Shown one piece after another: positions 20,321 to 58,467 of a DNA stretch of 64,000 bases. Both the position numbers and the translations under genes were made by a program. The first letter of the stretch is position 1. Each line of letters starts with the position of its first letter. The notes beneath the pieces were generated by a model that saw nothing but the letters and a program-made list of their open reading frames with translations, had not been told where the DNA came from and ran no database searches. The DNA is from Eledone cirrhosa (taxonomy: Eukaryota). Location of the stretch: NCBI GenBank assembly GCA_964016885.1, contig OZ024741.1, forward strand, positions 181,412,001 to 181,476,000, given 5' to 3'.

Positions 20321-20948
20321 TTTTTCTGGTTTTATAATTTCACAAAGTTTTACTAATAGAGAGAGTCGGTTTCTAACATAGACACAAGACTCTCCCATTG
20401 GAATTTACTCAACATCAACTAGGTAGATATGTATGTATGTCTGCATGCATGCATGCATGTGTAGATATGGATGTTATTGTATGTGTGGATGTGTATGTTT
20501 TGAGTTGTATGTGTGCATGTGTATATGCAGTTATTAGATGCAACATTTTTGGAATGTTTTACATATTTTTACTGTTCCATTAATGGATTGTACTTGTAAT
20601 TTCCTAACTAGTTGTGTTCTTTCTGTTCCTGTGAAGCGTAGCTTCTCAAGATTTGTATTGAGGCAGTTACTAACATACCCCAGTGACCCAATAATCACAG
20701 GCATAAATCTGAAGGTGTAATCAGGGTGGAGTATCTGCAGATTTCTCATCAGTTCTGCATAAATATTCTCCTTTTCACTAATCTTTGATATTATATTGGC
20801 ATCTGCTGGGCAGCTAATTTCCACTACTGTGCATGTTTTCTTCTCCCTGTCCCATATCATAATATCTGGTCTGTTATGCCTGCATTTTATTGGGGTTTTT
20901 ACTGGAACATTCCACCAGTACTCTTTCATATTATGTACATGGATGTCT
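20321..20948 (-). mobile_element. 5'-truncated R4/Dong-like element, family 2
   Basis: Endonuclease motif HNRPDIMIWD...VVEISCP...KENIY, then a 3' UTR. (TATG)n on both sides. Confidence 0.85.
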
Positions 20949-21221: not shown

Positions 21222-21625
21222 GGAAAAAAAACACAAAAAAAAACCTCAAAATAACAAAACACACACACACACGCACACAACACAACAACAACATCAACTG
21301 CCACCACCACCACTACCGCCGCCGCCATCACCATCACCAGCGACCGGGCCTTAAGAAAACAACTTCAATAACAATTTTTCTGCTTTTGGCACGGATCCAG
21401 CGACTGGCCCAGCGCATCACTGGTACTCTCTTTTGTTGACTCCGTGGGGATGGAAGGCAAGGTTGATCTCGGCGGGATTTGGGCTCAGAGCGTGGAGGGC
21501 CGTGACTCTATGCTGTAAAGCAATTATAATAATACTGGACTGTAGTACGATCGGCTTCAACTATACAAACTCTTGAAAGTCAACAGTTGACATAATCTTG
21601 TAATCTTGTATCAGTAATGACGGTA

Positions 21626-21659
<34 letters not shown>

Positions 21660-22099: not shown

Positions 22100-22147
<48 letters not shown>

Positions 22148-25100: not shown

Positions 25101-25347
25101 TCTTCGCAGTCACAAAGTAAAACCAGTGGTTGACTACCAGGCTGCTGTTGGAGATGCTACTCATCATGCTTGCCAAACATGTGGTAGAGAATGTAAATCA
25201 GCAGGAGGGCTCAAGCGACATGCAAAAGTACACGAACTCCAACCACAGCCGACTATTCCCAGTGAATGTTTTGGTTGCCGACTCTGTGCAAGACATTTTA
25301 GATCATTGGCTGGGCTAAAAAGCCACATTCGATCGCAGCGCTGTTAG
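21011..25347 (+). mobile_element. RTE-clade LINE, decayed copy 1 (long leader, APE, RT, 3 C2H2 fingers)
   Basis: GSWNVRTL, ALSETR, GDFNARVG, TDHRLV (AP endonuclease); YRGISLL, QSGFR, GVKQGD (RT). Stops and frameshifts, plus an internal deletion near 24746. The coding part is 22189-25347. Confidence 0.93.
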
Positions 25348-25514
25348 TTGCTATCGTGTGTGTGCGAGTGTGTAGATATGCTTATGTGTGTGCGTGTTTG
25401 TGTGTGTATATATATATGTATGTGTATATTATTATACGTTGTTGTCGTTATTATTATTGTTGTTATTATTATTATTATTATTATTGTTATTAATGTATCT
25501 GTGTGTGTATATGT

Positions 25515-25681: not shown

Positions 25682-28600
25682 ATTCCTTGAATCTCCGTCA
25701 TTGATGTTGGTTAACTGGAAAGTCCGTTGGATTGAATATCAAGCCACTACCTGCAGCCTCAGATATTCAGGACGTATCGGAGGGTTCTTGCTGTTCCAAG
25801 CAAGCATGCCTTTTGAAGCGTTCCAAAAAGCGTGAAGGGGTCGATTTTCTTTAACCATCCCTGGAAACTTTTGGAGATAGTCCCCAGTGCGCCTATGACA
25901 ATCGGGATCACTTTGACTTCATGGCAGTTCCAAATCCTTTTCACCTCCCACTTTAGGTCTTGGTATCGGTTAATTTTCTCCCTCTCCTTCTCTTGCACTC
26001 TCGTGTCGAACGGGCAGGCCACATCCACAATCAGACACGATCTTTTTTCTTTGTCCACAACCACCAGGTCAGGTCTATTGTGTTCCAGTTTTTTGTCCGT
26101 CTGTATCCTAAAATCCCACAGCACCTTCACCTGATTGTTCTCCACCACCGCCTCTGGCCTATGCTCATACCATTTCTCAGAATGTGGTAAATTGTTTACT
26201 TTGCACAGGTGCCAGTGGATCACCCTGCCCATCACATCGTGTCTCCAGCCCTTATAGTGGGTCTGGGCTAGGTGTTTACACTCGGACACAATGTGAGCCA
26301 CAGTCTCCTCTCTCTCTCCACAGATCCTGCACAGTGGGCTAGCCTCCTCCTTGTAGATATGGTGCTTCAACCACTTCGTTTTGAGGGCCTGCTCCTGCGC
26401 AGCCATTAGCATTCCTTCTGTAGCCTTTTTGAGGTCTCCTCTTCTCAACCAGTTCCATGTCTGTGGATCTCTAAATTCAGTTTTCTCAAAGAAGGTACTA
26501 TGAAGGGATTTTCCCTTAAGGCTGCTCTTCCTCCTTGATGTTATTTCCTCCTTGGACATCCCCTGGCCTACTGTCCCCTCCTTCAGTACGGTTCTGAGCA
26601 TTGGCTCCTTACTATAGGTCACGTATTTGTATAGGTTGTTTTTCTCCATCCGAACACAGTCCTCTATGCTGATAAGACCTCTTCCACCCTCAGATCTCCT
26701 TAGGTAGAGTCTATCGACATCACTCCTCTTGTGGAACATGTTGTAGATAGTCAATAGCTTCCTAGTCTTCCTATCCATTTCTTTTTGTTCAGCAACATTC
26801 CATCTCAGAATTCCCGCACTGTACCTAATAATAGACACAGCTCGGGAATTTACTGCGCTTATGGCATTTCTGCTGTTCAGATGTGACTTCAATACGCTCC
26901 TTACTCTCCGAATGTATTCAGTTCTTAACAATTCCTTCATTTTTTTGTTCTTTATGCCATCAGCCTCCAGAACGCCCAAATACTTGTATCCTTCCTCAGA
27001 GTCAATTTCCTTTATCATCTCACCTGTTGGTATCTGGATCCCGTTACTTCTGCTCAACCTACCCCTCTTCATCACAATGACTCCACATTTACCAATACCA
27101 AACTGCATACATATATCACTGCTGAAAATACGGACAGTGTGAACAAGCACATCCAACTCCTTCTCACTTTTCCCGAAGAGCTTAAGATCGTCCATGAAGA
27201 GGAGGTGATTGATGGTAAGCTCTCCCCTTCCCAACTTGTATCCTGCTCTCACTTTTCGCAGCATAATGGTCAAGGGCATCAGGGCAAGGACAAACAACAG
27301 AGGGGACAGGCTATCTCCCTGGAAGATACCTCTCTTGATCTTCACGCTTCCCAAGGATACTCCAGTTGATGTCAACTCTGTCTCCCAGGACCCCATACTC
27401 CTGCCTAACAACTGTCTGATGTTATCTGCCACCCTGAAGATCTCCAGGCTTTTGGTGATCCAGGAATGAGGCACCATGTCAAATGCCTTTCTGTAGTCTA
27501 TCCATCTCATGGCAAGATCAGTGTGTCTCCTCCTGCAATTCCCCATTACCATCTTATCAATAAGTAACTGGTCCTTTGTACCACGTGACTTCTTTCGGCA
27601 TCCTTTCTGTTCGTCCGGTAACAAGTTGTTTGTGTGGAGGTGATGGTAGATTTCCTCAGACACAATGCTCGTCAACAGTTTCCACATTACGGACAGACAT
27701 GTGATAGGTCTATAGTTGGTAACATCATTACCCTTGATTCGGTCTTTCATTATCAGAACTGTGGTACCTTTTGTCAACCACTCTGGCACCTCACCCGACA
27801 CCAAGCAGTCATTGAACATGGCCGTCAGCTTCGGGTGGAGGGATGTTAAATGTTTAATCCAATACCCCTGCACACCATCTGGGCCTGGTGATTTCCAGTT
27901 GGTTAGTTTTTTGGCCTGCCCCTTAAGAGTTTCAACTGTGATACTCAAATCAGTCTGTTGTTGTGCCTGCTCACCGATCTCCCTCTGTACTGTCTCAATC
28001 CACCCTGCCTGGGCATTGTGTCTAACATCCTGCTCCCATATTCCTCTCCAGAATGTTTTAGTTTGCTCCGCCCCAGGGATCAAGTCGTTGCCTCTTTCTT
28101 TCCCCTCAAGCTGTCCAAACAGCATCTTCTGGTTGTTGTCGAACATGCGGTTCTGTTTATACTGACTGACTCTGTTCTCGTATCGCCTGATTTTTGCACT
28201 CTTTGCTACAATGCGTTGCTTCAGTTCCTCTATGATAATATTTAGCTTTTTCCTCCTAGTTTTGTATTTTATTTCCAGTCTATTTTTAGTGCCTATGTTT
28301 TTTAGTGTCCCATTCAGTAGTGACTCAAGCTTTCCTATGTCATTTCTCATTTCCCCGATTTGCCCACTCAGTCGCTTCTTCCACCACGGCTCTGCTCTTT
28401 CTTGTCTGTTGTTTCCTCTCGCTTTTATACCAAGTAGTTTCCTCACCGTATTTGCTGTTGCTTTGAGGATATTGTTGCACTGGTGAAGGCTCCTCGCCTC
28501 AAGGTATGGGATGACTTTGTTTACCTTAGCTGTTGTTTCTTTTAACTTTTTCCTGTCTACAAATCTTAGGTTCATAGGTCTCCCACTATCATTGTTCAAT

Positions 28601-29460
28601 TCATCTACCACTAAATTTAGGATGTCAACCGAATCTTGTCCTAGCCCGTCAGCATTCATCTCCTCAGTGGCCGTATCTCTGTTCCAGGTATTATTTATCT
28701 CAGTATTCAGATCATTGTCTGCTTCGGGTGGTTCCTCCGTTCTCAGGACCTCTTCACCTTCATTTCCCACTGGCTCGCTTGTCTGGCATACTACACCCGC
28801 CATCTCCAAGCCATTCTCTCTGCTCAGTTCCTCCAGTTCCAGCTCGCTTATCCATCCATTAGTTCTTATTACCCGAGCCTGCCCGGCCAATTTTTGTTCA
28901 TCTAATTTAAATAAACCAATCTCGTTCCAGATGTTATGCATCCGTCTCCTGTAGCCCCTCTCCTTGGGGTTACTTTTCAGGTAACATTGCATAACAGTTC
29001 TATTCAATTCTTTCGTCCAGTTGGTTCTGGCCCCTTTCCTTCTTCTCCTTCCTCCAACATCAGCAGTATTTGGTTGACAGTCAGGTTCCTGCTGCTGAGC
29101 CAGGGGGCACCTGTTGGGTGAGAGTCTGTCACATGACGTTCTAGTCTCCATTTCACCGTTATTCGAACTGTTTATGTTCGATATTTAAACACTCTTATCG
29201 AGGATTGGCGAATGTATGGTTACATATCCATCTGTGGATCCGCCATTCCACTTGGCCCTTGTGTGGCATTATCACCACGCTGTATACGAACACACATAAA
29301 CAAACAAACACACAGGCAGAAAGGGCCCCAAAAATGAATAAGCATAAGTTTCATTGTAATGTAGTGTTCGAATGTCTGACTTAGTTTTTGTTTTTTAAGT
29401 TTTAGTTTTTCCCCCCTCTTCTCTGTCCGTCCGCCTGCTTCTCTCTTCATTCTTATTTTC

Positions 29461-30111: not shown

Positions 30112-30471
30112 TATTCCTTGAATCTCAGTCATTGATGTTGGTTAACTGGAAAGTCCGTTGGAATGAATATCAAGCCACTACCTGCAGCCTCAGATATTCA
30201 GGACGTATCGGAGGGTTCTTGCTGTTCCAAGCAAGCATGCCTTTTGAAGCGTTCCAAAAAGCGTGAAGGGGCCGATTTTCTTTAACCATCCCTGGAAACT
30301 TTTGGAGATAGTCCCCAGTGCGCCTATGACAATCGGGATCACTTTGACTTCATGGCAGTTCCAAATCCTTTTCACCTCCCACTTTAGGTCCTGGTATCGG
30401 TTAATTTTCTCCCTCTCCTTCTCTTGCACTCTCGTGTCGAACGGGCAGGCCACATCCACAATCAGACACGA
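30112..30471 (-). mobile_element. 5'-truncated second copy of the same Dong element
   Basis: Near-identical to 25682-26041 and flanked by (TAT)n on both sides. Confidence 0.95.
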
Positions 30472-30760: not shown

Positions 30761-30810
30761 TGTATGTATGTATGTATGTATGTATGTATGTATGTATGTA
30801 TGTATGTATG

Positions 30811-31055
30811 TCTTTCTCTTAATTTCGAGTACATTTTTGACTGGCCACCTTCCCGGTGGCAAGGTTGTAAAAGAAAAGAAATTGTCATCCCTTGAATCGC
30901 AAAGTTTGAAGGTGCCAGCTATCGCAGCCATTTGTAGTCTATGAATTAGGGATCTGGTCTCTTTGTCCACAAATCAAAGTTCAGTTATACTTTGGTCCAA
31001 GCGGGTTGGTATATAACCTGTAGCTCTAATAATGATGGGTATGAAGCTGAAGGTG
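30811..31055 (-). mobile_element. Short 3' fragment of a third R4-like family
   Basis: YTFSFIPIIIRATGYI...LIHRLQMAAIAGTFKLC aligns with family 2 (YTFRFMPVIIGSLGYV...LVRKLQVQSINGTVKIC). (TATG)n on both sides. Confidence 0.75.
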
Positions 31056-31117
31056 TATGTATGTATGTATGTATGTATGTATGTATGTATGTATGTATGT
31101 ATGTATGTATGTATGTA

Positions 31118-31703
31118 CTGGTAACATGTATCCCAGTACAACCTGTCCCATGGTCGGGTCATTGGCGACTAAACTGGCAACCCTACCAAGGTTTCTTGGT
31201 GAGGAGGGTGACTTTGGACATCCTGCAGGACTAAAAACAAAACCTGTCAAAGAGCAAAGGAGCTCTTAAGAGTCAATGGCCATCCAAAATCACTGGGAGA
31301 GATGACCCCTTAGCCTTTGTCAAGGCAGAATTCTAGGAGAAGGAAAACTCTGATATAACACCTGCAACCTTGATGGTATCCAATGATGTTGACTTGTTCT
31401 TCTTTTTGGTAAATATCATCTTGGTTAAGAGAGTGGGATTGGCTTTGTGCAGTGCTTTTGCTCACTATAAAAGCTTCATGGCACAGGCATTGCTTTATAT
31501 CTGGAGATCCCTCTGCACTTGTCATCACATCGTACCATGGGCCCAGCACTATGTGTCAGTAATTGTCACAAGTGTAGTGTTTGTACCAGAGTTTTCAAGT
31601 CGCTGGCTGGACTAAAAAGTCACACTCGTTCAGCGCATCGGTAGGGGTTCTCCTACATGGATATAAAGTAGTGGCCGTACTCGAAAACGAGTTGGCAGCC
31701 ACC
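31118..31703 (+). mobile_element. Non-autonomous RTE-derived element (family B), copy 1
   Basis: Shares leader motifs with the RTE LINE 5' UTR (CTAGGAGAAGG, AGAGAGTGGGATTGGCT, GCACAGGCATTGC). No RT; has a hairpin tail followed by ATGT repeats. Repeated at 50409-51014. Confidence 0.8.
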
Positions 31704-31887
31704 ATGTATGTGTGTATGTATATTTGAAATATGTCCTTCATAAAGCAAAAAAAACACACACAATAATAATCGATCACTTGAGAAAATCGGACATGTAAAA
31801 AAGTAGATAGAAGTACCTTTGTCTACATTTTTCCATCACCAGGTGCACTTTACCCGATTTTTGCAACTATTATTTTATACGTATCGA

Positions 31888-32448: not shown

Positions 32449-35249
32449 GTTAGTGGGGGACTGGAATGGAATCCTAGATGCACGTTGGGACTATGTGGGA
32501 GCATGTCCCGATAAGGGGGGGGGTGTAATAGCCTCAAACAGTTAATCGGCCGATTTGACCTGGCCGATAGATATCGACTATATTTTCCAACTGTGCCACT
32601 GTGGACGTGGACTAATCATAGCGGAACATCTAGATCGAACCTAGATAGGGTTCTAGTTAGAAAGAAGGATAGGGACATGTTAAGCTGTCCACAAATGTTC
32701 ATGGTTGCCTATTTAAATCACAAATTAGTGACCTGCTTAGTCAACCTTGACAAAACCCATAGACAGAGACGCGGCTACTGGAAGCTGAACTTGTCGTTAC
32801 CGACATGCAAAGCCTACAGTAGACGGATTAGCACTTTAGTTAAGCAGCACTTGACGGGGCCATTGTCAACAACAGAAGGTAGTACTCTCTCAAGAGGGCA
32901 ATTAGATTAGACTCGATAGATTTTAGTAAAGAATTAGCGTTAGATAGAAATAAGAGCGAAAAGGAACTGGTAGATAAAGTAGAAGAGGCACTTAGGAGTG
33001 GCAACGTAGCCAGCGTGCTAGCGACGAGAACGGCCTTGGACCAGTTCTTCGACGCAAAGCACGAAGGCTTCGTTGTCAGAAGCATAATACGTGCTCTGGG
33101 TAACAAGGGAGCCAAAACTGTTAGCTGTGCCTGGGTGACGGAGTCGAAAAGTGGCAACAAGTTCACGATTCGGTTTTTGAAGGACCAAAACGGACGCGTG
33201 ATACGTGAGCCGAAGCAGATGTGCTTTCAGCGGAACTTTGCTCAGCTGTTCGGGCAGAGCAGCGCGCCGGGAGGGGCTATAGATTTCGGTCCATACCTGG
33301 ACGGCCTACCGCCACTCTCGGACAGCGAGGCGAAGTTCTGCGAAAAGCCGATTTCAGCCGCTGAGATAAGGGACGCGCTGAGCTAATGCGGCAAACGCAA
33401 ATCTCCAGGTCTCGACGGTCTACCCTACGAATTTTACGTAGCAATGCCCGACTTGTTCTCCAGTCTCCTGGAAGCGGTATACTGCAACTGGCAGCAGAAC
33501 GGGAGAATTCCCAGTTCTGTGACCAGAGGCGTAGTCACACTAGTCAGGAAGGACGAGAATAAGGGGGATGACATAGGAAACTTCCGGCCTATAACTCTGC
33601 TTAACACAGAGTTACAGATTTTGGCTAAGGTGTTGGCAAAGAGGCTGGTGATTGTCGTCGAAAACCCGGTGGGAGAAGCGCAGACATGCGCAATCCCGAC
33701 CAGGTCCATACACGACAACCTCCACCTCATGCGATACATCATAGAGAGGGTAGGGTGTAAACCGGCTTCGGTGGAACCCTGATCAACTTGGATCAGTCTA
33801 AGGCTTTCGATAGGGTTGACTATCGTTTCCTGGATGCGGTGCTCGAGGCGGCAGGCTTCGGACCCGTGTTCAGGAACTAGATTGCTGCAATGCACAACAG
33901 CAACATCTGCTCAAGGGTCACGGTGAACGGCTACCTCTCGAAGCCGTTACATATCACGCGATCCATTCGACAGGGATGCCCTCTCTCCTCCCTTCTGTAC
34001 GTACTGACTCTCGAGCCACTACTTCGTAAGTTGGAGTTATTGCAGGAAATCCCCCTGGAACCGGGACTGCGGAAAGCGGCGTCGGCCTACGCCGCCGACG
34101 TGACAGTAATGGTGGTGAGGACCTCCCAAATCGAGGAAGTCGGCACCTTACTGAAGGAATACGAAAAGTTCACAGGAGCCAAGCTGAACCGGGACAAGTC
34201 CATCGGTTTGCAACTCGGATCGTGGAGAGGCAAACCGATGCCTTCCGATGGTGTCGTCGGACGCTGGACGGAAGGACCGGTAAAGCCTGTCGAGGTCTCG
34301 TTTGGTCTGGAGATCCAGGTGGAGAAGAACTGGAACGAGGTGACGGCCAAGGTGTTTGCACTCATCCAGAAGTGAGCCGAGTGCAAACTATCCTTGAAAG
34401 GTCGAGCGGAGGTGGCGAACACTTTTATAGCGTCATCTACTACCGCTTGACCGTTGTGCCTTGTCCAGCCAAAACGCTCACCAAAATGGAGCGCGCGCTC
34501 TTCCAATTCCTTTGGAAGAAGCGGGATCATTTGGTGAGAAGATCCATCTGCTGCCAACACCCTTCCAACGGAGGGTTGGGGAGGCCGTGGCTGACGATGC
34601 GCAAACACGCGGTCAGGCTTCGGCATCTCTATGTATTCCTCACCGGACAACCGGTGTGGACCCCGTTCGTGAGGCGAGCCTTCCCACGACTCGTCTTTCT
34701 GACAGAGCTGAAGTCCTGGGTCAAGCAAAGACCGAGGAAAATGGGCAACTGGCACATCGAATGTGCTTAGGTGTTCACAGCCCTCTGGCAGGCGGACCCG
34801 GCGATCAGTGGAGTCTACACTTCGTCATTCTATAGAGGGTTGGTCCGCAGCAAGTGCGACGACGCGCTCGGATAAGCACTAGGTGTAGAGGAAGACGAAC
34901 TGGCCAGTCTGTTCGGTAGGACCTTCCGCCCGGGACCGATGGACAACTTCCAAAAGTCCCTGGCCTGGCAGTGCTACCGAGGAGCTCTACCAGTTCGAGA
35001 CAAGATCTACTGACACGGGCGCCCGGGCAGGGACCCCTCGTAAAAGATCTGTCCGAGGTGCGTGCGAGACGAAGAAACCGTCGCGCACGCATTCGTACAC
35101 TGCCCGGGCGTTACCGACCTGTGGGGCTATGTGGAACGACTATATAGTTTATTGTTATTTATTAATGTTAAAGTTATTTTTATGTAAAATCCCCGCCGTC
35201 ACGTCTTGTAATGTCCCATTTTTGTACGCCCCTGTGGCAAATAAAGAAA
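32449..35249 (+). mobile_element. Decayed L1/Tx1-clade LINE ORF2
   Basis: WTWTN...LDRVLV and GYWKLN (endonuclease C-terminus); NFRPITLLN, RQGCPLS, YAAD (RT). Many frameshifts. Ends AATAAAGAAA followed by (TATC)n. Confidence 0.9.
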
Positions 35250-38504: not shown

Positions 38505-38716
38505 CGTTTCTGAATTTGTTTAGCAAGATTCTTTATCTGAAAACGTGTGTTGAAACCGATATTGTTATACTTTGGGAGTGTCATGTTGCCAATAAGAAAC
38601 ACACGCACCAGTTGCTTTCACTTCAATTTATTATAATAAATTTATAAATTTAGGAATTTATAAATTTCCGGTTGGTTGGTTGGTTGGTTCCACAACCAGA
38701 TGGTTGTTTATATATT

Positions 38717-38759
38717 GTCAAAGTTCTTTCGTCACACATTCTGTGACCTCTTCAGTGAC
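38717..38759 (-). ncRNA. Minimal hammerhead-like motif
   Basis: Minus strand: GUCA-CUGAAGA-G-GUCACA-gaaug-UGUGAC-GAAA-GAAC-UU-UGAC. Confidence 0.6.
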
Positions 38760-38923
38760 TGGGGATCCTTTTCTTTGTTTTTGTGCCTCTCCTTTGTTCT
38801 GTCCTACGCCATTTTGTTTCTGTGTGTAATTCTGTTATCTTATATAACAAATGGCGTAGGACAGAACAAAATGGCGTAGGACAGAACAAAGGAGAGGCAC
38901 AAAAACAAAGAAAAGAATCCCCA

Positions 38924-38966
38924 GTCACTGAAGAGGTCATAGAATGTGTGACGAAAGAACTTTGAC
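38924..38966 (+). ncRNA. Minimal hammerhead-like motif (mirror copy)
   Basis: GUCA-CUGAAGA-G-GUCA...UGAC-GAAA-GAAC-UU-UGAC. Stem I GUCA/UGAC, 2-bp stem III, CUU triplet. Confidence 0.6.
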
Positions 38967-39096
38967 AATATATAAACAACCATCTGGTTGTGGAACCAAC
39001 CAACCATTCCTAAATTTATAAATTTATTATAATAAATTGAAGTGAAAGCAACTGGTGCGTGTGTTTTTTATTGGCAACATGACACTCCCAAAGTAT

Positions 39097-39141
<45 letters not shown>

Positions 39142-43129: not shown

Positions 43130-44111
43130 AATCAGAGTTGACCATCAGTTAGTGGATGTCTGTAATCATCAGATATCAAATAACTAAACCAATCCCTTGA
43201 AATTTATGAATCGAATAAAGAAGAACTTATACCAAATATCGATCCCAGGTAGCAAAACCTGAGTCGCGAATAACATACCTTTATATACACGGAAGATAAG
43301 CAAGCGTATAAACAACACAGCCCACCAGATAAACAAACAGAGAAACAACAATATATTAACTTCGTAGCGGTTGAAGCTATCTTTGTTCTTTCTATTAATT
43401 ACTTCCCTTTATGTCTTAAAAAGTATTTATCAGCTTGTTTCCTTATTTAAGTAGTAACAAAATCACTTTTAGAAGCCATTATTTTAATCAGGTATAAGTC
43501 TTTGATCTAAATAAACAAACTAGAAGTAATGAATAATACTCTCTCTCACTTTAACACACATACACACACACACACATACACACACACACACACACAGACA
43601 CACACACTCCCTCTCTCTCTTTATATATATAGGTAAAGAATAAATAAGACTAACATAGAGATGCAAAAAGTCTTACTAGGTTTACGCTTGGGAAGAAGTA
43701 AATGAGGGTTTCAACTTATCGGATATATATATATATATATATATATATACACGCACACACACACACCTATACACTCATACATGTATATGTGTGTTGTTTG
43801 TGTGTGTGTGTGTCTGAGCATGAATGATTGCAATTCGTACTTATGTTGCAAAATAGATTCAAATTGTAGTCCGGGTTTAAGTTGTAATATTTTATATTGG
43901 GAACATCAAAGGAGAAAGTTTAATTAATATGGACGTATTTTCAATGGACTTAACAAAATATAATCTAAGCATGATATCAGTTACACTGTTCATTAAACTA
44001 TATAGCAATATTAGAGAAAAATCTGCAAGAGGCCAAGCAGCCAATCGAGATAAATTAGTTGATAAGTTGTCAGTGCTACTTTCCTGAATTTGCGGCCATG
44101 ATATATGTATG

Positions 44112-44175
44112 TTTTTCTGGTTTTACAATGTTTTAGAATGTTTTACCAATAGAGAGAGAGCGAGAGAGAGAGAGA

Positions 44176-44259
<84 letters not shown>

Positions 44260-44947
44260 TTCTAATATAGTCACAAGACTCTCTCATGGGAATTTAAACA
44301 TCAACTAGGTAGATATGGCTGCATGTCTGCATGCATGTGTGTGCAGGTGTAGAGGGTATTGTATGTGTGGATGTGGATGTTTTGAGTTATATGTGTGCAT
44401 GTGTATATGCTTTATATCTTTGTATCTGTACATTCTGTATCAAATAACTGTTTCTATTTTTGGCACAAGGCCAGCAATTATCCCAGTGTATTACTGGTAC
44501 TTTATTTTATCGACCCCGTAAGGATGAAAGGCAAAGTTAATTCTGTATCTAATAACATGCAGTTATTAGATATAGAATTTTTAAAACCTATTTTTACTGT
44601 TCTGTTAAGGGATTGTACTTGTAATTTCCTAACTAGTTGTGTTCTTTCTGTTTCTGTGAAGCCCAACTTCTCAAGATTTGTACCGGGGCAGTTACTAACA
44701 TACCCCAGTGTCCCAATAATTTCAGGTATAAATCTGAAGGTATAATCAGGGTGGAGTATCTGCAGATTTCTCATTAGTTCTGCACAAATATTCTCCTTTT
44801 GGCTGATCTTTAGTATTATATTGGCATCTGCTGGGCAGCTAATTTCCACTACTGTGCATGCCTTCTTTTCCCTGTCCCATATCATTATATTTGGTCTGTT
44901 ATGCTTGCATTTTATTGGGGTTTTGACTGGAACATTCCACCAGTACA
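44112..44947 (-). mobile_element. 5'-truncated R4-like family 2 copy with a nested SINE fragment and expanded (GA)n
   Basis: Same endonuclease and 3' UTR as 20321-20948. A SINE piece lies at ~44445-44542. TATG repeats at both ends. Confidence 0.85.
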
Positions 44948-45015
44948 CTTTAATATTACGTATGTATGTATGTATGTATGTATGTATGTATGTATGTATG
45001 TATGTATGTATGTAT

Positions 45016-46934
45016 GTTCTTCTGGTTTTATAATTTCACATTTTTACCAATAGAGAGAGAGAGTCGGTTTCTAACATAGATACAAGACTCTCTCATTGGA
45101 ATTTACACATCAACTAGGTAGATTATGTATGCATGTCTGCATATGTAGATATGTGTGGATGTGTATATTTTGAGTTGCATGTGTGCATGTATATATGCTT
45201 CGTATCTGTACATGTGTATATGCAGTTATTAGATGCAAAATGTTTGGAATGTTTTACATACTTTTACTGTTCCATTAATGGATTGTACTTGTAATTTCCA
45301 AACTTGTGTTCTTTCTGTTCCTGTGAAGCCTAGCTTCTCAAGATTTGTATTGAGGCAGTTACTAACATACCCCAGTGCCCCAATAATCACAGGCATAAAT
45401 CTGAAAGTGTAATCAGGGTGGAGTATCTGCAGATTCCTCATCAGTTCTGCATAAATATTATCCCTTTCGCTAATCTTTGATATTTTATTGGCTTCTGCTG
45501 GGCAGCGAATTTCCACTACTGTGCATGCTTTCTTCTCCCTGTCCCATATCATAATATCTGGCCTGTTATGCCTGCATTTTATTGGGGCTTTTACTGAAAC
45601 ATTCCACCAGAACTCTTTCATATTATGTACATGGATGTCTTCCACATTGCTGTAGCTTTTAATGTGTTTATTATCGGGGCTATCTTTTTTACGAACTGCA
45701 TTGTACAGTGTTTTGGCCACTACATCATACCTCATAGGTAGATAGTACCGCGATGACATCTTTGGACAGCTGCTGATGACATGGGTGATATCCTCGATGT
45801 TAGTTCTGCAGAGTCTGCACTTGTTATCACATCTAGGTTTTTTACCTGCATCCCTATCTCTTTTGTGAAACAGGTATTTCGTGTTAATCTCCTGTTCTTG
45901 GATTGCAAAAGCATATCCTTCAAAGTGGGAGCCAATATAGCGGTAGTTGGTCCAAGATAGACTACTTTACTTATCTATATTACTCTCACTCTGGAGCTTC
46001 CTGGCAACATATCCATGCATGATGTTTTGCTGATAAGCATGCAGTTTTTCAATGGATTTACTGCGATGCTGCTGAGCGACTTCCTTGGGTGTGAGTTTTT
46101 GATTATCACACAAGGAATATCTCTCGAGGAGTTCCTTCCCAACTCTCATGATCTTATCTATTTTATGCAGATAGACTTGCTCGAGAAACGGGCTCCTACG
46201 CTTCGAGGTTCGTAGATGTTGTCGGAGAGATATGATGCGACATTCAAATGTTGTCTGGACTTATGGTAGGCCTCTGCCCACGTTTCAAGTAAAGTCGGTC
46301 TATGTCACTGTTGATGTAGAAGTTTCCGGTGTTGTTTAGTATTTTTAGAGTTCCAGCATCAACTGCTCGGATTTCGACTATCGTCCAATTGAGTATTCCA
46401 AACGTTGGTGTTAGGACAGGCACAGCAAACACATTGTGAGCCACTGATTTGTTTTGCACAGAGAGTTCCGATGACCAGATTTTTCTTAATCGGGTGTAGT
46501 ATTCCCTGGTTACGCGTTCTTTATTACAGATACCATTATAGGATATGTTCTCATCTATCCCCAGGTATCTGTAGCAGTCCTCATCAGATATTGGTGAAAC
46601 AGTTAGGTCATTGATGACAATGTTGCTAGATTGGGTTGTTGTTTTTCCCCGCGTTACAGTCATGTATGAGCATTTATCTTGGCCAAACTCCATTCCTATA
46701 TCCTTTGAGAACGTTGTAACCAGGTCAAGAATTTTCTTCATCTCATCCATGTTCTTGGCATAGAGTTTCAGATCGTCCACAAAGAAATTATGGGTTAGGT
46801 TCGTATTTCTGTCCTCCTGTGAGTCAATGATGTACCACTCACATTTCTTGAGCAGAAAGGACAAGGGGTTTAATGACAAGATGAATAATATCACAGAGAG
46901 ACTCTCCCCCTGAAATATACCCCTGCAATATTTT
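45016..46934 (-). mobile_element. Longer 5'-truncated R4-like family 2 copy (partial RT and endonuclease)
   Basis: RGIFQGESLS, FVDDLKLY, YRYLG, SDIDRLY, HNRPD; frameshifted; bounded by (TATG)n on both sides. Confidence 0.9.
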
Positions 46935-46937
46935 ATG

Positions 46938-46971
<34 letters not shown>

Positions 46972-47916
46972 TGTATGTATGTATGTATTGACGCATAACT
47001 TTTGACTGAGTCGTACCTGGATACCTGAAACCTGGCGGAGTCCATCCTGTCTCCAATTCTGAACGGATATTTTTTTTAACGACCTCAAAATGAATGAAAA
47101 TTCCATTGCCATGATAGTTAACGCCAAACGGCTGAATTAACATAGTTTAAAGATGTGTTCGTTTATTCATCCGTATTGGGTGAAGTCCATGAATTAGGCT
47201 ATCTGATTGGTTAGTTTTTATGTGTTTGTAGATGGCTGGTTAGTTCGACACTGGAACGGATGTAGCGGCCGAAAATAAAACTCATGTATCCTGTAGCTTC
47301 TTTTGACGTGCATCCGAGGAGGTTTTGTAGAGCACGCGTTTGGTTTCCGCTGACTTGATGTGTGTCTCTTGCGAGGATTTGAAGGAGGATCTGCAAGGTA
47401 CACAGGTATTAAAGTCACTTAACTGGCGGAGAATAACGTGCTGTAAGAAGAAAGCTTCTTATGAACAACAGACACTCAGTTGTCAGTTGAAGTAACTTCA
47501 TTATACTTACGTTTCATAGACATCTATATGAAAATAACATATTCCCCTTGGCTTAAAATTTGAACCACTGGACAAAGACTTCAAAAATGCACATATATAA
47601 TTGTGTTTAAGTAAAACGGAATAGATCTTCGTTGGTTTCAATGACGAGTGTTACAGGATTTAACTGAGCATTCCAAAGACATGTGTATCTTTAAAATAAT
47701 TATTGGCGAGATTCGGCGTGACCCCTCGTGCAATAAAGCTGGCCCTTTGAATATTTGCAGGTACACTTCATCTGACGGACTTCCAAACAGTTTACATATC
47801 TTCAATTTCACTCATAAATCGACCACGGTTTATTTAAATAGTTTTCTTCACAACCATGCGCTTCCAGTTTGATCCTCCTCAGAACTTGGACAGGTGTTAT
47901 TTATTGTAGAGCCAAG

Positions 47917-48135: not shown

Positions 48136-50408
48136 TTATTGTAGAGTCAGGTTTTACAAAATATTCTGAGTGGAAACAGAAACTGTGTGTGTCTTTAGTC
48201 TGTTAATGGTTTTGTTTACACATGTCTAAAAAGCAGCGTATTTTTGTTGATGTCAATTTATGTCTTGTAGCTTAGCGATTCGACAAATAAAGGCCGATAA
48301 AACAATTACTAGACTGAAATAATTAGTGTGATACTTCTAGTTATTATAGTTCAGTGATTTTAAACTCTATTGGACAATGTAATCACTACAAGAATAGTTT
48401 GTCTCTTTCGAACACTATTAATACTATACACACATTAAGGCACTACAAGCATCACCAGTCTTAGTAGTCACATTTTAAAGACCCTGTTATCAAAACCAGA
48501 CTCTATACACATTTACACTATGAACAAGTTAAGCAAATCCTCATTTGAAGATCGGATTTTATAATTATTTCTAGAAACTATAGTAATGCATATCAATTTA
48601 TAGAAACCTTCGCTCTCTACAAAAAATAGCATACTATATAAAGACTTTGCGATACTACTTGTCCTAAGGCCAATTAAATAATGAATTATACGACCAGATT
48701 GTAGGTTAAAAGATCAAATGCACTGTATATATCTAAGTATCTTTGACCTCATAGCTTTAGGGAATATTAAACTGATGTTTTGTGTGAAGTAAAACGCCTA
48801 ATGTTCATAAAGGTTTTAACTGGTTGACTTTACAGAAAATACTATTTTAGATGCTATTCGGTTCCCATGACCAAGCCACAACTTTCAAATGCCTATTCCA
48901 TTTGGTTTCAAAAATAACCATGGGGAGAGGAGAACTGCATGTCAGTTTAAGAATCAACAGAATTGTATAACACCCGAAGAAATAACTCCAGGCAATAAGC
49001 ATGATTTCCAAGAACTTTGATGGGTGAGGAATTAAATCTGTCAGATTCATTTTCTCTTCTTATATTACATAAATAAACTCTAAAATGGTGTCCGTTTCGA
49101 CTAGGTTGATTAGTCGGTTCACTACTCTGATGATATAAATCGATCAATATTTCAAACCTCAATGCATTTATATCGCTCTTCTGAAATTTTATATATTCAA
49201 TAACGTTTTCGTGGATTTTCGAAAATAACATGTTCACCAACGTGGAATCATTATCTAAGATATTTCAATAATCTGGCAAAATCTGTAGATATAGTAACGT
49301 AGCAACATAAACGCATATTACTATTAAAGTATGACACCAGGTCAACATGAGTAGCAGCTGCATAAGCAACAGCAACAGCAGCAGTCGTAGCTTCATCAAC
49401 TGAACAATGCCATCAGCAAGAGCAGTATTGACAGAATTAGTAGCAATAACTTCCTATTACTCTATTAAGTAATATACATGCACATCACCAGCAAAAGTGT
49501 AATTGTGCCACACGCAAAATATACTATGACGCAAGTTATTTTAGTTTTAGGCAATTTGTTTTGTATACAGTATTGTTTAGAAACTGTAATGCTGCACTTG
49601 ATAAACATAAGTACAATGAGATGGTTATTTTTTATAATCTTATTTTTCTGTACTGACTACTGGAATACACAATTTAGTTAAACGTGGGCGTAATTCCTAT
49701 GAATCGAACTGGTTAGAGATCACATTAAACTGTTACCTGGCATTTAAATGACATTAAAACTATATTGATTGCTTTTTTTCATTCGTAAATTAATAATATT
49801 TGACTAACTGATGGGGAATGCGACCAAAGCAATTTAATTACTTAACGTGTATCATTGCCAAATCGTTCAATATTAATGTAGTTAGCTTCGTTTCATCAAG
49901 AGCGCAGAACTTTGCCTATTTCTCATCGAAATATATTGATTTACTTCATATATAGACGAGTAATTCTTTTTAGGGGTGTGTTACAGTAAATTGAGTTCAA
50001 CCCAACTATAATAATTTCTGACGTAAGCACAAGCCACCAATTTTGGAGAGCGGAGTTTCGTCGATTAAATAGTTCTCAGAATTTGAGTGGTACTTCGTAA
50101 AGAAGAAAATCAAAGTTAATTTCGGTAGGATTTGAACTCAGTACATAAAGGGTAGAAATAAATACTGTAATTTTGTCCCACGGTCTTACGATGTTGACAA
50201 TATTCATGAAACCTGCTTCTAGAACTGGGAATATATGACATTCATGCTTTTCATCGAGATATTTGCAATATGAAATACGTCCAATTAGGGATCGAAAACA
50301 AATTCTTCCTGATAGAACTATTAAATGTATGTATGTATGTATGTATGTATGTATGTATGTATGTATGTATGTATGTATGTATGTATGTATGTATGTATGT
50401 ATGTATGT

Positions 50409-51014
50409 CAGGTCACCAGTTGGTGCTACTGGTAACATGTATCCCAGTACAACCTGTCTCATGGTCGGGTCGTTGACGACTAAACTGGCAACTCCACCAA
50501 GGTTTCTTGGTGAGGAGGGTGACTTTGGACATCCTGCAGGACTAAAAACAAAACCTGTCAAAGGGCAAAGGAGCTCTTAAGAGTCAATGGCCATCCAAAA
50601 TCCCTGGGAGAGATGACCCCTTAGCCTTTGTCAAGGCAGAATTCTAGGAGAAGGAAAACTCTGATATAACACCTGCATCCCTGATGGTATCCAATGATGT
50701 TGACTTGTTCTTCTTTTTGGTAAATATCATCTTGGTTAAGAGAGTGGGACTGGCTTTGTGCAGTGCCTTTGCTCACTATAAAAGCTTCACGGCACAGGCA
50801 TTGCTTTATATCTGGAGATCTCTCTGCACTTGTCGTCACATGGTACCATGGGCCCAGCACTATGTGTCAATGATTGTCACAAGTGTAGTGTTTGTACCAG
50901 AGTTTTCAAGTCACTGGCTGGACTAAAAAGTCACACTCGTTCAGCGCATCGGTAGGGGTTCTCCTACATGGATATAAAGTAGTGGCCGTACTCGAAAACG
51001 AGTTGGCAGCCACC
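50409..51014 (+). mobile_element. Non-autonomous RTE-derived element (family B), copy 2
   Basis: Highly similar to 31118-31703; long (TATG)n before and after. Confidence 0.85.
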
Positions 51015-51106
51015 ATGTATGTATGTATGTATGTATGTATGTATGTATGTATGTATGTATGTATGTATGTATGTATGTATGTATGTATGTATGTATGTAT
51101 GTATGC

Positions 51107-51494
51107 ATGTCCCACTCTCTTAACCAAGATGATATTTACCAAAAAGAAGAACAAGTCAACATCATTGGATACCGTCAGGGTTGCAGGTGTTATATCAGAG
51201 TTTTCCTTCTCCTAGAATTCTGCCTTGACAAAGGCTAAGGGGTCATCTTTGCTCACTATAAAAGCTTCACGGCACAGGCATTGCCTTATATCTGGAGATC
51301 TCTCTGCACTTGTCGTCACATGGTACCATGGGCCCAGCACTATGTGTCAGTAATTGTTACAAGTGTAGTGTTTGTACCAGAGTTTTCTAGTCGCTGGCTG
51401 GACTAAAAAGTCACACTCGTTCAGCGCAACGGTAAGGGTTCTCCTACATGGATATAAAGTAGTGGCCGTACTCGAAAACGAGTTGGCAGCCACC
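51107..51494 (+). mobile_element. Family B copy 3 with a 5' inversion
   Basis: ~51110-51248 is the reverse complement of ~50611-50750, followed by the forward 3' half. Confidence 0.85.
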
Positions 51495-51799
51495 ATGTAT
51501 GCATGTATGTATGTATATGGAAGTTACACAAATATTTTCGTATACTTTACCAGAGCAATCCTTATTTATATTTTACATTTTACATTCTACATTTACTTAC
51601 ATCTCAATATAACATGGCTAAAATTCAAATTTAGCAAAGAGAAGAAAACGGACAAATGAACTAGATACATCTCACTGGCCCCCGCCACCACGATAACGTC
51701 TACACTCTCTCCCCGACCATCACATTTACATTTACACATGTCATTACCCTATCTAGACTAAAGTCACCGACCTCTACTCTGTGTTGAATGTGTGTATAT

Positions 51800-54700
51800 A
51801 TATATATATGTATGTATATGTGTGTATATACATCATTCAGTCAAACGACCAGATTTCAACCCCAACATCTACAACAATAACACCGGCACTAATGTTTACA
51901 GCAACAACAGCTTCAGAATGAATTGAAATGAACATTTACAACAACAACAGCGGCATCAAACGATTAAAAAAAACAAAACCCAACAAACAAACAAAAAAAC
52001 TCAAAATAATAAAACACACACACACACACGCACACAACACAACAACAACATGAACTGCCACCACCACCACCACCACCACCGCCGCCATCACCATCACCAG
52101 CGACCGGGCCTTAAGAAAACAACTTTAATAATAATTTTTCTGCTTTTGGCACGGATCCAGCGACTGTCCCAGCGCATTACTGGTACTCTCATCCGTGGGG
52201 ATGAAAGGCAAGGTTGACCTCGGCGGGATTTAAGCTCAGAGCGTGGAGAGCCATAGCTCTATGCTGTAAAGCAATTATAATAATACTGGACTGTAATACG
52301 AACGGCTTCAACTATACAAACTCTTGAAAGTCAACAGTTGACATAATCTTGTATCAGTAATGACGGTAATATATATATATATGTGTGTGTGTGTGTAAGG
52401 GAGTAGCGCGTGTGTGTTTGTTTGTATGTATGAGTGTTGCTGTGTACGCGCGTATGTATGCGCGTGTGTGTATGTCGTACGTATAAGTGTCAATAAGTGA
52501 GTTTTTTGTTTTTTTTGCGCGGGGACATAGAAATAATCGGGCTGGATGCCCGATCGCGCAGTTAAACCACTGGGAGTGAAGAACCCCTAGCCCTTGTCAG
52601 GGCATTTTTCTAGGAGAAGGCATCTCAGGAAAATGGATTAACTCCGACATAAAACCTGCGGCTCAGTAGTTACCGATGATGTTGATCTTTTCTTCTTTTC
52701 GGGTTATAGCTACTGTCGCTCAGAGAGTGGGATTGGCTCAGTGCACAGTCTTTCCCCACTTTAAAAATATTCGTCACGCACAGGCATTGCTCGGTACCTG
52801 GCGGCGGTCCTCGAGGCAGCCGGTTTCGGGCCCGTTTTCAGGAGTTGGATCGCAGCAATTTACAGCGACATCTGCTCAGTTGTGAGGGTGAACGGTCACC
52901 TGTCGCATCCGTTCAGCATCATGCGCTCAGTCCGCCAGGGTTGTCCCCTCTCGTCCCACTTGTACGTATTGGCTCTCGAGCCGTTACTGCACAAACTGGG
53001 GGCGATGAGGGGCGTCCCACGCGAACTAGGATGCGGGAAATCCGAGTTGGCTTACGCTGACGACATCACCGTGGTGGTGTCGAGCACCCGACACGTCCAG
53101 ATGCTCGGCACCGCTCTCAAGGAATACGAAGCGGTGACAGGAGCAAAGATAAACCAGGAAAAGTCGGTGGGCTTGCAGCTCGACACCTGGAGAAGCAAGT
53201 CCATGCCGTTCGACAGCGTCGTGAGGCGTTGGACGGACGGACCGGTTAAATTGCTCGAGATCTGGTTCGAACCGGACCTCCAGATGGAGAATAACTGGAA
53301 CGAGGTGACGAGCAGGGTGGCCTCCCTCACCCAGAAATGGGCCGAGAAGAAGCTGTCCCTGAAAGGCCGGGCGGAGGTGGCGAATGCGTACATCGCATCC
53401 GTCATCTGCTACCGCCTCACCGTCGTCCCTTGCTCCAGCCCAACTCTCACCAAAATGGAGCGCCTCCTCTTCCGCTTTTTGTGGAAGGGACGCGTTCCCA
53501 TGGTCAGACACTCCATCTGCTGTCAACACCCGTTGCGTGGAGGACTGGGCATGCCATGGCTGATGATGCGCAAACATGCGCTGAGGCTGCGACATCTCTG
53601 GTGCTTCCTTGATGGTGAACAGGTGTGGTCGCCGTTCGCCAGGCACGTTTTCCCACAGCTTGTCTCCTTGACGGAGCTGCAGTCCTGGGTCAGAAAAAGA
53701 CCGAGGGATAGCGCTTGGAAACTGGAATGTCTCCAGGTGCTCACTGCCCTCTGCCAGCTGGGCACCAGTATCGGTGGAACATCCACCTCGGCGTTCTATA
53801 GAGGACTAGTAGAGGGGATGAGCGACGACATTCTCGGAGAGATCCTGGGCGTCGAAGAAGATCAGCTGTTTGCTCTCTTCTGGAGAACTTTCAGCTCGAG
53901 GCCTTTGGATAACTTCCAAAAATCCCTGGCCTGGCAGTGCTACCGGGGATTGCTGCCGGTTCGAGATAAGCTCTACAGGCACGGAAGTACCGTCAGCCGA
54001 GCCTGTCCGAGATGCGCGCAGGGCGACGAAACCGTCGTGCACGCACTCGTTCAGTGCCCGAGCATTGCTGACTTGTGGAGCTATGTCGAACAGTTGCTGT
54101 CGCGTGTAGGACTGATCTGGTTATCGACTGAGTCCATTGTGCAGATGGTCTCGCCGTCTTCCTTCGAGGAAGAAGGGCAGGCGGTTTTCATCTGCCTGGT
54201 GGCCATGGCGAAAGAGATTGTGTGGACAAGGTTAAAAGGGTTAAAGACAGACACTTTCCTCTTCGGCGAATCCCTAATTAACTTTTTCAAGTTTCACTTG
54301 AAGAGGAAAATCAGGGTGGAGAGGCAAGTGCTGCTTTCTAGCAAGTTTGTTGAAAGGTGGGTGAATGTAGCGAGAATGGTCCGAGTGAACGGGACCACTC
54401 TGAATATACGTCTGTAGTTTGAGAAATGGAAAAATTGAGAGAGGGCGCTTGCCCTGGTGGTCAGGGTGGCCGTGGTCTTTTGTGTGGTTTTCGCCACTAG
54501 TAACCCTTGGAGGTTTCCTCCCTATTGGGGAATGTTTCATTGTTTTAATTTTCATTTTTATTGTTTATATATGTTTCTATGTCCTTCTTTTTCTTTTCTT
54601 ATATAAATAATATAAAATATTTAGACGCACAAAACCCACATCGTACCGTCCTGTACCGTCCTGTGCCGTCTGTAATGTTTTTCTTGATGTCAGCCCTTGT

Positions 54701-57700
54701 GGCCAATAAAGAAATCATTAATAATTATTAATAGTGTATTATTATTATTATTATTATTATTATTACTTTTTTTTTTTCCCAATTCAATGATGTTCCAGAA
54801 CAATATAAAAGAGATAATTGGCAATTTAGGTTCTGGAACAAAAAAGATAATTGGCAATAAGGGCAGGGGCCCCAGGTTATCACAGCCTGGGCCCGCTCGT
54901 CATCGTGCCATTGTAATAGAGCCAAACAAGGCATTTAGTCTTGGCTGCTGGAACGTACGGACGCTGCGTGACAGGGATTCCTTGGAGCGTCCTGAACGAA
55001 GGGCCGCTCTTGTTGCAAAGGAGCTTCGACATTACGATCATGACATCGTGGCTTTATCTGAGACGAGGTTAGCTGGAGATGGTCATCTTACAGAATTTTG
55101 TGGAGAATATACATTCTTCTGGAAAGGAAGAGATGAAGGAACCAGAAGAGAGGCTGGGGTAGGATTTGCTGTTAAGACTGTTCTTGTGAATAAATTAGAA
55201 GAATTCCCAGTAGGGATTAGTGAGCGTCTTATGTCCATGAGAATTCCGCTGGACAAAGGAAGATATGCGACCCTGGTGAGTGTGTATGCTCCAACTATGA
55301 GTTCTGTCGATGAGGAAAAGGTGTCCTTTTACCATGCCTTGAAAGGTGTTTTAAGAAATAACCCTCAGGCAGACAAAGTCATCGTGCTTGATAACTTTAA
55401 TGCTAGAGTGGATAAGGATTTTAACACATGAAATGTAATCGGAAGGCATGGGGTGGGAAAGTGTAACAACAATGGTATGCTCCTGCTGCAGATGTGTGAG
55501 GAGCTGGATCTGTGTGTTACCGACACCATGTTCCAACAAAAGAACAAATTCAAGACCACATGGATGCATCTTGCATCTAAGGAATGACATCTTTTGGACT
55601 ACGTCCTAGTCAGGATGCGTGACAGACAGGATGTGCAGTGTGTTCGTGCTCTTCGTGGAGCTGAGTGCTGGACGGACCACCGCCTGGTACGCGCAAAAGT
55701 GAAACTAATCACTAAACGTAAAATCCGGGCTCCTGGTGTTGTCCTGCCCAAAAGATTGAATGCTGTTCGTCTTAAGGATAAAAATGTGAAGAGGACATTG
55801 GAAGAAGAGATGCAGGCTGCAGATCTTGGTGAGGATTGGCCGACCCTTAAAAAGTAGGTTTATGATGTAGGCAGGCGTGTTCTGGGATTGGTGCAGAGAA
55901 AACATCAGGACTGGTTTAATGAGAATGATGTACATATAGAAGACTTTTTGGCTGATAAGAGGCGTGCACTATCACGCTACTTGACGGCAAAACCACAGGA
56001 GAGGAATACGTTGCACGAGGAACTCAAGGATGTAAAATCATGTGTTAGGCGGAGTCTTTCTCAGATGAAGGATCAGTGGTGGAGTGAGAAGGCTGGTGAG
56101 ATAAAAACTGCGTCAGATTCCAATAACACAAAGGTGTTGTACAGTCTCTTGCGTGAGGTTTATGGACCGTCTTCTTCTCTGGTGACACCGCTTCGCAGCA
56201 AGGATGGCAAAGAACTTCTTCGTGACTCACAAGGAATTCTACGAAGGTGGCGAGAGCACTTTGATGATCTTTTGAATCAGCCGTCTGTCGTTAGTGAAGA
56301 TTTCCTCAATCTCATTCCAGAAAGTCCTGTGAAAGTAGCTCTCGCAGAACCTCCGACGCTTGTGGAGATTGCAGTGGCTATCTCGAAAGGTCTCCAGGTA
56401 TGGATGGCATATATGCTGAGCTCCTACAATATGGTGGTGAGAGACTCCTGCAACATCTTCACTCTTTCTTTGGCAGGATATGGGCTAATGAATCCGTACC
56501 TGAGGACTGGAGAGATGCAGTAATGGTGGTCTTATACAAGGAAAAGAGTAACAGGAATGATTGTGGGAACTACAGAAGTATATCATTGCTTTCTGTCGTA
56601 GGGAAAGATTTATGTAGGGTGCTTCTGGACCGTCTGCTGACACACATTGCAGATTGTGTTCTTCCTGAAAGTCAATCTGGTTTTCGTGCTGGACGCGGCA
56701 CTACTGATATGATCTTCTCAGCTAGACAGCTCCAGGAGAAGTGCATGGAACAAGGTTTGTATCTGTATCAGGTTTTTGTCGATCTGACAAAAGCTTTCGA
56801 TACTGTTAACAGAGATGCATTATGGAAGGTTCTCCAGAAACTTGGTTGCCCTGATAAGTTCCTTGCTTTAGTTAGGTCTTTCCATGACGACATGAAGGCT
56901 TGGGTTAATGTCGGAGGTAACATGTCGGAGCCTATCTCGGTAAAAAATGGAGTGAAACAGGGAGATATTCCAGCACCGACCCTGTTTGCCATATACTTTG
57001 CAATGGTTTTCTGTATTGCATTCAGGAATTGCAAGCATGGTGTTTACATCCGATATCGAACCTCAGGCAGCATATTTAACATCAGGCGTTTTGCTGCAAA
57101 GACAAAAGTATTTACATCAATCATAAGAGACCTCTTGTATGCAGATGATTGCGATCTTGTAGCGCACACAGAGAGTGATATGCAGCACATTTTTAATGCA
57201 TTTTCTGACGCTTGCACTGTCCTAGGATTGACTGTCAGTCTCAAGAATACCGTCGTCATGTATCAACCTGCCCCTGGTAAGCAGTACACTGAACCAAATA
57301 TCTATGTGTATGGTAAACGACTTGGAGTGGTTGATCAGTTTGTCTACCTGGGAAGCACTGTCAATCGATACAGCAACCTTGATAGTGAAATCTCACTTGG
57401 TATTAGGAAAGCAAGTGATGCTTTCGGAAAGCTAGAAAGGTGACTCTGGGGTCGGCGAAACATATGCAGGAGGACAAAGGTAAAGGTGTACAAGGCATTT
57501 GTGCTCTCTTGTCTTCTTTATGCCTGCGAGACCTGGGTCACATATCGACACCACCTTAAGCAATTGGAGCGTTTCCATCAGATGTGTCTCAGACGGATCC
57601 ATGGCGTTCACTGGAGGGACCACATCAGTGATGTCGAGATTTTGGAAAGCTCTATGTGTGACAGTATAGAAGCTCTTGTGCTTAAGCAACAACTCCGTTG

Positions 57701-58319
57701 GAGTGGTCACCTTGCTAGGATGAAGGATTCTAGAATACCAAAACAACTCTTTTATGGAGAGTTAGTTAAAGGAAAACGACCGCCACATAAATCAAAAAAG
57801 AGGTATAATGATTCCTTGAAAGCCTCTTTGAAAGACGCTAACATCTCTGCTGATACATGGGAAAATATTGCTGCTGATCGTAATAAATGGAGAAAGACTG
57901 TATATGAGGGAAAAGTTGCCTTTGAAGCATCTCGAATCGCATACGAGAAAGTAAAGCGGGATGTGAGGAAGGGCATTACTGTTGCACTTCCAGACGGCGA
58001 GGGTCCTCCTATGGTGCTGACATGCAGCGTCTGTGCGAGACTCTGCCTAAGCAAAGCTGGACTCGAAAGTCATCTTCGCAGTCACAAAGTAAAACCAGTG
58101 GTTGACTACCAGGCTGCTGTTGGAGATGCTACTCATCATGCTTGCCAAGCATGTGGTAGAGAATGTAAATCAGCAGGAGGGCTCAAGCGACATGCAAAAG
58201 TACATGAACTCCAACCACAGCCGGCTATTCCCAGTGAATGTTTTGGTTGCCGACTCTGTGCAAGACATTTTAGATCATTGGCTGGGCTAAAAAGCCACAT
58301 TCGATCGCAGCGCTGTTAG
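51800..58319 (+). mobile_element. RTE-clade LINE, decayed copy 2, interrupted by an L1/Tx1 insertion
   Basis: Same leader and ORF as copy 1. Coding part 54787-58319 includes YADD and FVYLGS; stops and frameshifts present. Confidence 0.93.
52791..54716 (+). mobile_element. 5'-truncated L1/Tx1-clade LINE (open 511-aa reading frame at 52882-54417)
   Basis: RQGCPLS, YADD, GGLG, CPRC...ETVVHALVQC zinc-binding motif. The 3' end GTGGCCAATAAAGAAA resembles that of 32449-35249. Confidence 0.92.
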
Positions 58320-58423
58320 TTGCTATCGTGTGTGTGTGTATAGATATGTTTATGTGTGTGTGTGTGTGTATATATTTATGTATACGTATATTATTATTGT
58401 TGTTGTTGTCGTTATTATTATTG

Positions 58424-58467
<44 letters not shown>

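Follow-up and report, generated by a model that had tools for sequence, protein, structure and literature searches.

Families A and B of Eledone cirrhosa are best read as R4/Dong-type non-LTR elements with a restriction-like endonuclease (RLE) that lie in (CATA)n in one orientation, were likely inserted by TPRT and would belong to an old sublineage targeting tetranucleotides (CATA/CTTA), a reading to which we assign a probability of roughly four in five. The window analysed here is a 64-kb stretch of contig OZ024741.1 (181,412,001 to 181,476,000), and window coordinates count from its first nucleotide. The window contains 89 occurrences of (CATA)4, whereas 100 shuffles yielded 0.

The window holds four pieces of the two families, all on the (−) strand, so that TATG on the + strand reads as CATA in the element sense at both ends. 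A family A copy at 45017..46934 (−) is cut at its 5′ side within the RT domain and keeps the C-terminal half of RT, CCHC, RLE and the 3′ UTR; it is frameshifted and 93% identical to L038, a full-length family A copy. Head-to-tail below it lies an older family A copy (44112..44960, −) consisting of the RLE end and 3′ UTR, and with this arrangement a stacking already proposed in the preliminary description is confirmed. A (TATG)14 tract (44961..45016, +) separates the stacked copies, (TATG)11 (46942..46985, +) occupies the truncated 5′ side of copy 45017..46934, and (TATG)2 (44104..44111, +), on the 3′ side of copy 44112..44960, adjoins sequence that by eye resembles the 3′ end of an RTE-derived short repeat. 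The third family A copy (20321..20948, −), likewise an RLE end plus 3′ UTR, has (TATG)15 at its 5′ side (20951-21010) and short tracts of 2+3 units at its 3′ side (20293-20320), and the family B copy (30812..31054, −), the last ~270 nt of the element, is flanked by (TATG)12 (30763-30810) and (TATG)15 (31056-31115). The number of the pieces, their division into two families and their repeat-bounded ends thus agree with the preliminary description, although its end at 44947 falls ~13 nt short (the copy ends at ~44960), the 3′ tract of the copy starting at 44112 has just two units, and the 5′ truncation points, given there as all different, are clearly distinct in three cases and not four: they lie at ~2179, ~3488 and ~3485 of the family A reference and ~3930 of the family B reference, the two short A copies having cut points that almost coincide, a few bases apart. 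Identity between the stacked copies is 88% over the ORF part (291/329), and a fragment of an abundant unrelated short repeat (SINE; 44443..44540, no strand assigned), in the 3′ UTR, and a (GA)n expansion are confined to the downstream one (44112..44960); to judge from these differences, the two copies were inserted separately and are independent insertions.

A search of the genome (3.0 Gb, 1796 contigs) returned at least 1184 first-look candidates for family A and at least 2974 for family B. Extension of hits gave seven full-length A copies of about 4.1 kb, 94–97% identical pairwise, and five full-length B copies of about 4.2 kb; recovery of a full-length ORF, suggested earlier as a check, therefore succeeded in length but yielded broken frames throughout, with no intact-frame A or B copy among those recovered. 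The natural ORF pieces of the full-length copies together cover one single ORF in each family. It contains an RT domain (RVT_1, PF00078, E 8e-20) followed by CCHC and a PD..E/D..K RLE, with motifs that align across A, B, their relatives and family D, while an APE endonuclease is absent from the A/B ORF pieces. The order RT, CCHC, RLE is that of R4/Dong, in line with the R4-like identity first proposed, and the A/B protein weakly resembles R2 proteins of solved structure (E 2e-11). A and B are 50–56% identical in protein, and either is 30–38% identical to D.

The N-terminal region, alignable with that of family D, is modelled by AlphaFold as a three-helix domain (pLDDT 89–97 over residues ~51–110). 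Most of its top structural matches are DNA-binding domains of the Myb/SANT/trihelix kind at Z 5–6.4, the top value being a middling 6.4 (rmsd 2.4, 60 aligned). Foldseek with the predicted domain gave no match at E<=0.001, and Pfam gave neither a Myb nor a zinc-finger match in A/B. The region is accordingly described here as a predicted Myb/SANT-like domain lacking an N-terminal zinc finger. A GG(A)YGTG motif ~17–40 nt inside the 5′ end is common to A, B, L181, L183, L185 and L186 (the L loci are described below), and one TAA-type control has this motif nearby also; it is reminiscent of a downstream promoter element. Rfam reported nothing at gathering score for these sequences, its E-value matches being repeat-driven noise. 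A 5′ HDV-like self-cleaving ribozyme is ascribed to the R4/Dong clade in an earlier report (PMC3774820); our descriptor for it found no match at the 5′ ends of the elements, but it missed every TAA-type control too.

The preference for CATA extends beyond the window. Junctions were tabulated for copies with the 3′ end and both junctions visible (60 A and 52 B after removal of identical junctions, with 17 A rows and 7 B rows left out for want of a 3′ end), a sample of best BLAST matches and array neighbours, not a random one. A CATA-like 16-mer lies directly 5′ of the element at 49/60 A and 39/52 B junctions, against a background of 1707 of 56680 positions (3.0%) in 200 kb of arbitrary genome DNA; TATG-like 5′ junctions number 0/60 and 1/52, respectively. 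This tabulation had been named beforehand as the test that unrelated 5′ flanks would decide against specificity, and most flanks proved CATA-like. The proposed (CATA)n specificity stands as a preference but is not absolute: by inspection the non-CATA junctions comprise about six internal-deletion artefacts, several degenerate tracts and about ten (of 112 junctions) with unrelated sequence. In the cleanest subset, B loci chosen by an RT-region query (n=20), CATA was found upstream of all 15 truncated copies, whose cut points differ, and clearly so in 4 of the 5 full-length ones, and all seven full-length A copies have a CATA tract upstream, one of them degenerate. The 3′ ends of A and B are constant and followed by CATA, with CATACATA directly 3′ in 41 of the 47 A copies whose alignment reaches the final base of the reference, so independent copies with variable truncation have the same target at either junction. 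Exceptions include L138, which is the sole A copy that 200 kb of arbitrary DNA contained, is old (79% identity) and has an unrelated 5′ flank, and a diverged A-like copy (68%; L016:759-1166) with TATG at its 5′ side that sits tail-to-tail with an A copy. A TSD search in impure tracts gave 14/112 matches of >=12 nt, compared with a mean of 10 and a maximum of 18 after shuffling. Paralogous searching of the genome found no true empty site among 109 copies tested; joined flanks at 18 of the 109, considered as empty alleles, were ruled out as self-matches or generic array junctions.

Family D serves as a control from the same genome. It is an RLE element flanked by (TAA)n, represented in the window by a Dong-like copy (25685..29400, −; 5′ end unmapped) with an uninterrupted 1141-codon frame (25759-29184) and by a truncated copy (30116..30471, −) with (TAA)n on both sides. 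Among the 19 D junctions that are visible, fifteen are TAA-like and 0 are CATA-like, whereas TAA-like junctions number 0/60 in A and 0/52 in B. With 0/112 TAA-like junctions, A and B fall outside a strict definition of Dong by (TAA)n insertion. Family D is young; its best genomic copies are 96–99% identical, some of them stacked in TAA trains.

The CATA repeat is occupied from the opposite strand by a third family. Family C, 608 nt long and 98–99% identical between its best copies, is full-length at 50408..51015 (+), between (TATG)20 and (TATG)22; a further copy lies at 51109-51495 (+), and another at 31116..31704 (+), non-autonomous and with an (ATGT)n tail, has a tract in common with the B copy 30812..31054, which lies in the opposite orientation. 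Family C often borders A and B copies, and its 5′ junctions are TATG-like in 23/33 full-length and 21/32 truncated copies and CATA-like in none, the copies having been partly sampled beside A/B. Within the window it can be matched to an RTE LINE, both to its 5′ region and to its C2H2 end, and its own terminus is (ATGT)n. The family is bipartite and non-autonomous, with several 3′-end variants that each end in a hairpin plus (ATGT)n. It was also considered as a CATA-tailed partner of A/B and rejected in that role, its best match in the window being both ends of the opposite-strand RTE LINE. Two RTE LINE copies (APE, RT, C2H2) lie at ~21600-25450 and ~52500-58460 (+) and are about 95% alike; the 5′ part of the latter contains an L1/Tx1-like RT fragment (about 52791-54400) related to 33823-35137.

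Relatives of A and B occur beyond this genome. In a metagenome scan, of which 80 of 244 relatives are listed, nine loci among the matches listed are closer to A than to D. Five of these, at ~50% protein identity, have an informative flank: the full-length L183 and L186 are bounded on either side by (CATA)n, L181 likewise by (CTTA)n, and (CTTA)n adjoins the 3′ end of L184 and the 5′ end of L185. Four of the nine have no informative flank; the other 71 relatives among the matches listed mostly have AAT/ATT repeats or none. Intact frames of 1153–1217 codons are present in L181, L183, L185 and L186. The DNA of L186 has no close copy in the Eledone genome, where the search gave one 75-nt match. No relative was found in viral contigs, prokaryotic genomes gave two weak RT matches, and a cluster look-up of homologs returned named proteins only from Hydractinia and Euphydryas, these without element names.

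In a C-terminal tree (~580 residues; 23 chosen rows, quick search, midpoint root) A, B, L181, L183, L184, L185 and L186 are united in a single clade (SH-aLRT 100) to which the TAA types do not belong, and a second C-terminal tree of 54 of 68 rows gave a similar result. The four CATA types (A, B, L183, L186) group at 97–98 in the two trees, and the CTTA types are paraphyletic with weak support in the C-terminal tree, which hints that CTTA targeting may be older than CATA targeting. An RT-only tree of 82 rows assigns the two families to the same long-branch group, which has ~35 unnamed proteins, but they are not sisters there. Since the trees are made up of unnamed homologs, of insect proteins that bear no family name and of family D as a TAA proxy, the R4/Dong placement of A and B is inferred from architecture together with that proxy. 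The preliminary description had envisaged that a related lineage switched to a tetranucleotide target; a switch peculiar to these families did not survive the comparison, because the tetranucleotide habit is common to distant elements of other hosts, some of them flanked by (CTTA)n, and points to an old sublineage in place of a family-specific switch. Judged from these sequences, tetranucleotide targeting is likely older than this host lineage. Within the TAA clade, L195, L197, L198 and L206 have (ATT)n or (CTT)n flanks in the element sense, so strand and motif vary there too.

If A and B act as R2 and Dong do, their RLE and Myb-like domain would attach to the repeat and a nick would be made in its TATG strand, the 3′ end so released would prime cDNA synthesis, probably aided by pairing with the (CAUA)n RNA tail, and early joining would generate the 5′ truncations. 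Each insertion would leave CATA on both sides, thereby re-creating the target and allowing head-to-tail trains to be built, and RTE-derived elements with (ATGT)n tails may supply these tracts from the opposite strand and occupy them jointly with A and B. The Myb-like region of A is 61% identical (44/72) to that of the CTTA-flanked L181 and 36–40% identical (24–28 of 67–70) to those of other CATA types; this closeness either weakens a protein-based model or means that specificity lies in a small number of residues. In helix 3 the two CTTA types that have an N-terminus carry LRDQA, and the four CATA types carry LRQQA or LNE[Q/R]A. A broader proposal, which we advance tentatively and at slightly less than even odds, is that these elements represent an undescribed, widespread sister lineage of Dong reading tetranucleotides, in which the CTTA and CATA members (Myb-like regions at most 61% identical) would be one-base variants of a compact, zinc-finger-free RLE system with helix 3 as candidate determinant and would, in this genome, make up a self-renewing target network with the opposite-strand RTE elements.

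Site choice might also lie in the RNA. A relaxed nuclease, accepting for example TA-rich purine-pyrimidine repeats, could leave it to the (CAUA)n tail to pick pairable sites, so that the switch would have occurred in the tail; this is compatible with the main explanation, and we consider it rather unlikely while giving it real weight. CATA-like sequence stands upstream of 137 of 208 (66%) random CATACATA sites in arbitrary genome DNA, and the 5′ flank therefore shows repeat insertion and not protein recognition. The resemblance of the A Myb-like region to that of L181 and not to other CATA types points the same way, as does the similar behaviour, on the other strand, of family C, an unrelated APE-type RTE derivative with 21/32 truncated junctions TATG-like. 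However, target type tracks the protein tree across deep branches, and the observed 75–82% (higher without deletion artefacts) exceeds 66%, though not decisively. One report proposes tail-dependent site choice for RTE and describes R2Bm as working without tail pairing (PMC6007223).

That the 5′ repeats were made by the elements themselves at unrelated targets, through a template jump onto the tail of another RNA or through slippage, is very improbable. All eight window tracts of >=4 perfect units abut an A, B or C-type element, as such a process would have it, and the lack of a true empty site among the 109 copies fits it as well; but the stacked copies are 12% apart and have different secondary insertions, the 5′ tract is often the tail of a different family, and a jump onto a tail should often be followed by 3′ UTR sequence from that same family. 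Moreover, the alignment of one contig, from a related organism, crosses the repeat at the 20293 site and the contig extends ~1.9 kb further, a hint of an element-free repeat. Random insertion followed by survival or duplication in repeat-rich junk is scarcely credible. Some copies are indeed tandem or segmental duplicates (L019/L020, L022/L023, L033/L035), yet (CATA)3+ makes up 0.23% of arbitrary DNA compared with 5% for (TA)n, and the flanks are nonetheless CATA and strand-specific. Family D, which selects TAA within this genome, contradicts randomness as a control, and so does the orientation bias.

Insertion of A and B into (CATA)n has close precedents. Dong elements of the R4 clade combine RT and RLE with a Myb/SANT-like domain at the N-terminus, without zinc fingers, and a microsatellite target, according to two reports (PMC7998251, PMC3812793), and Bombyx Dong, DongAg, DongBg and ostracod Dong share these traits with A and B, where the Myb/SANT-like domain is predicted. 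Dong targets (TAA)n, whereas A and B occur in (CATA)n and their relatives in (CTTA)n, and A and B stand on a separate long branch from the TAA-type family D. In Octopus vulgaris, Dong-R4 LINEs are given as abundant and recently active, with 5 families and 1129 recent insertions, in PMC13282606. Other LINEs insert into simple repeats as A and B do, namely Togen (TG)n, some HERO, Kibi (TC)n, Koshi (TTC)n and Waldo/Mino (AC)n (PMC4640811, PMC3812793), but they belong to other clades, and the excerpted texts list di- and trinucleotide motifs for them and no tetranucleotide. Family C is of the type of RTE LINEs and SINEs with microsatellite-like tails, and differs from A and B in its APE endonuclease and opposite strand. 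The R4 elements of nematodes and R2 are rDNA-specific RLE elements which have the RT-CCHC-RLE order of A and B but a different target, and the N-terminal zinc fingers of R2 are not seen in A or B.

Microsatellite targeting by Dong is thus already known, and CATA/CTTA is well supported as a new target variant. No CATA or CTTA target for R4/Dong was found in the literature as far as the consulted sections of its reports extend (including PMC8967140, PMC13580325 and PMC10294476), although Repbase or the O. vulgaris repeat library may already record such elements. How RLE retrotransposons change target is an open question that bears on R2-type gene insertion tools. TAA- and CATA-targeting relatives lie side by side in this genome, and outside it there are CATA and CTTA versions that are intact, which makes a test of protein or RNA siting by domain swap versus tail swap feasible. 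Tract targeting would also explain why LINEs form trains and why one microsatellite is abundant in this repeat-rich genome.

The window contains further repeats. A tandem array of ~800-nt units, 96–99% alike and each with a (TCT)n run, occupies 10052-13973, a long degenerate (ACC)n array (2984-5564) is followed by an inverted (TGG)n array (5826-6524), and self-complementary stretches of 550–630 nt lie at 16594-17226 and 38559-39104.
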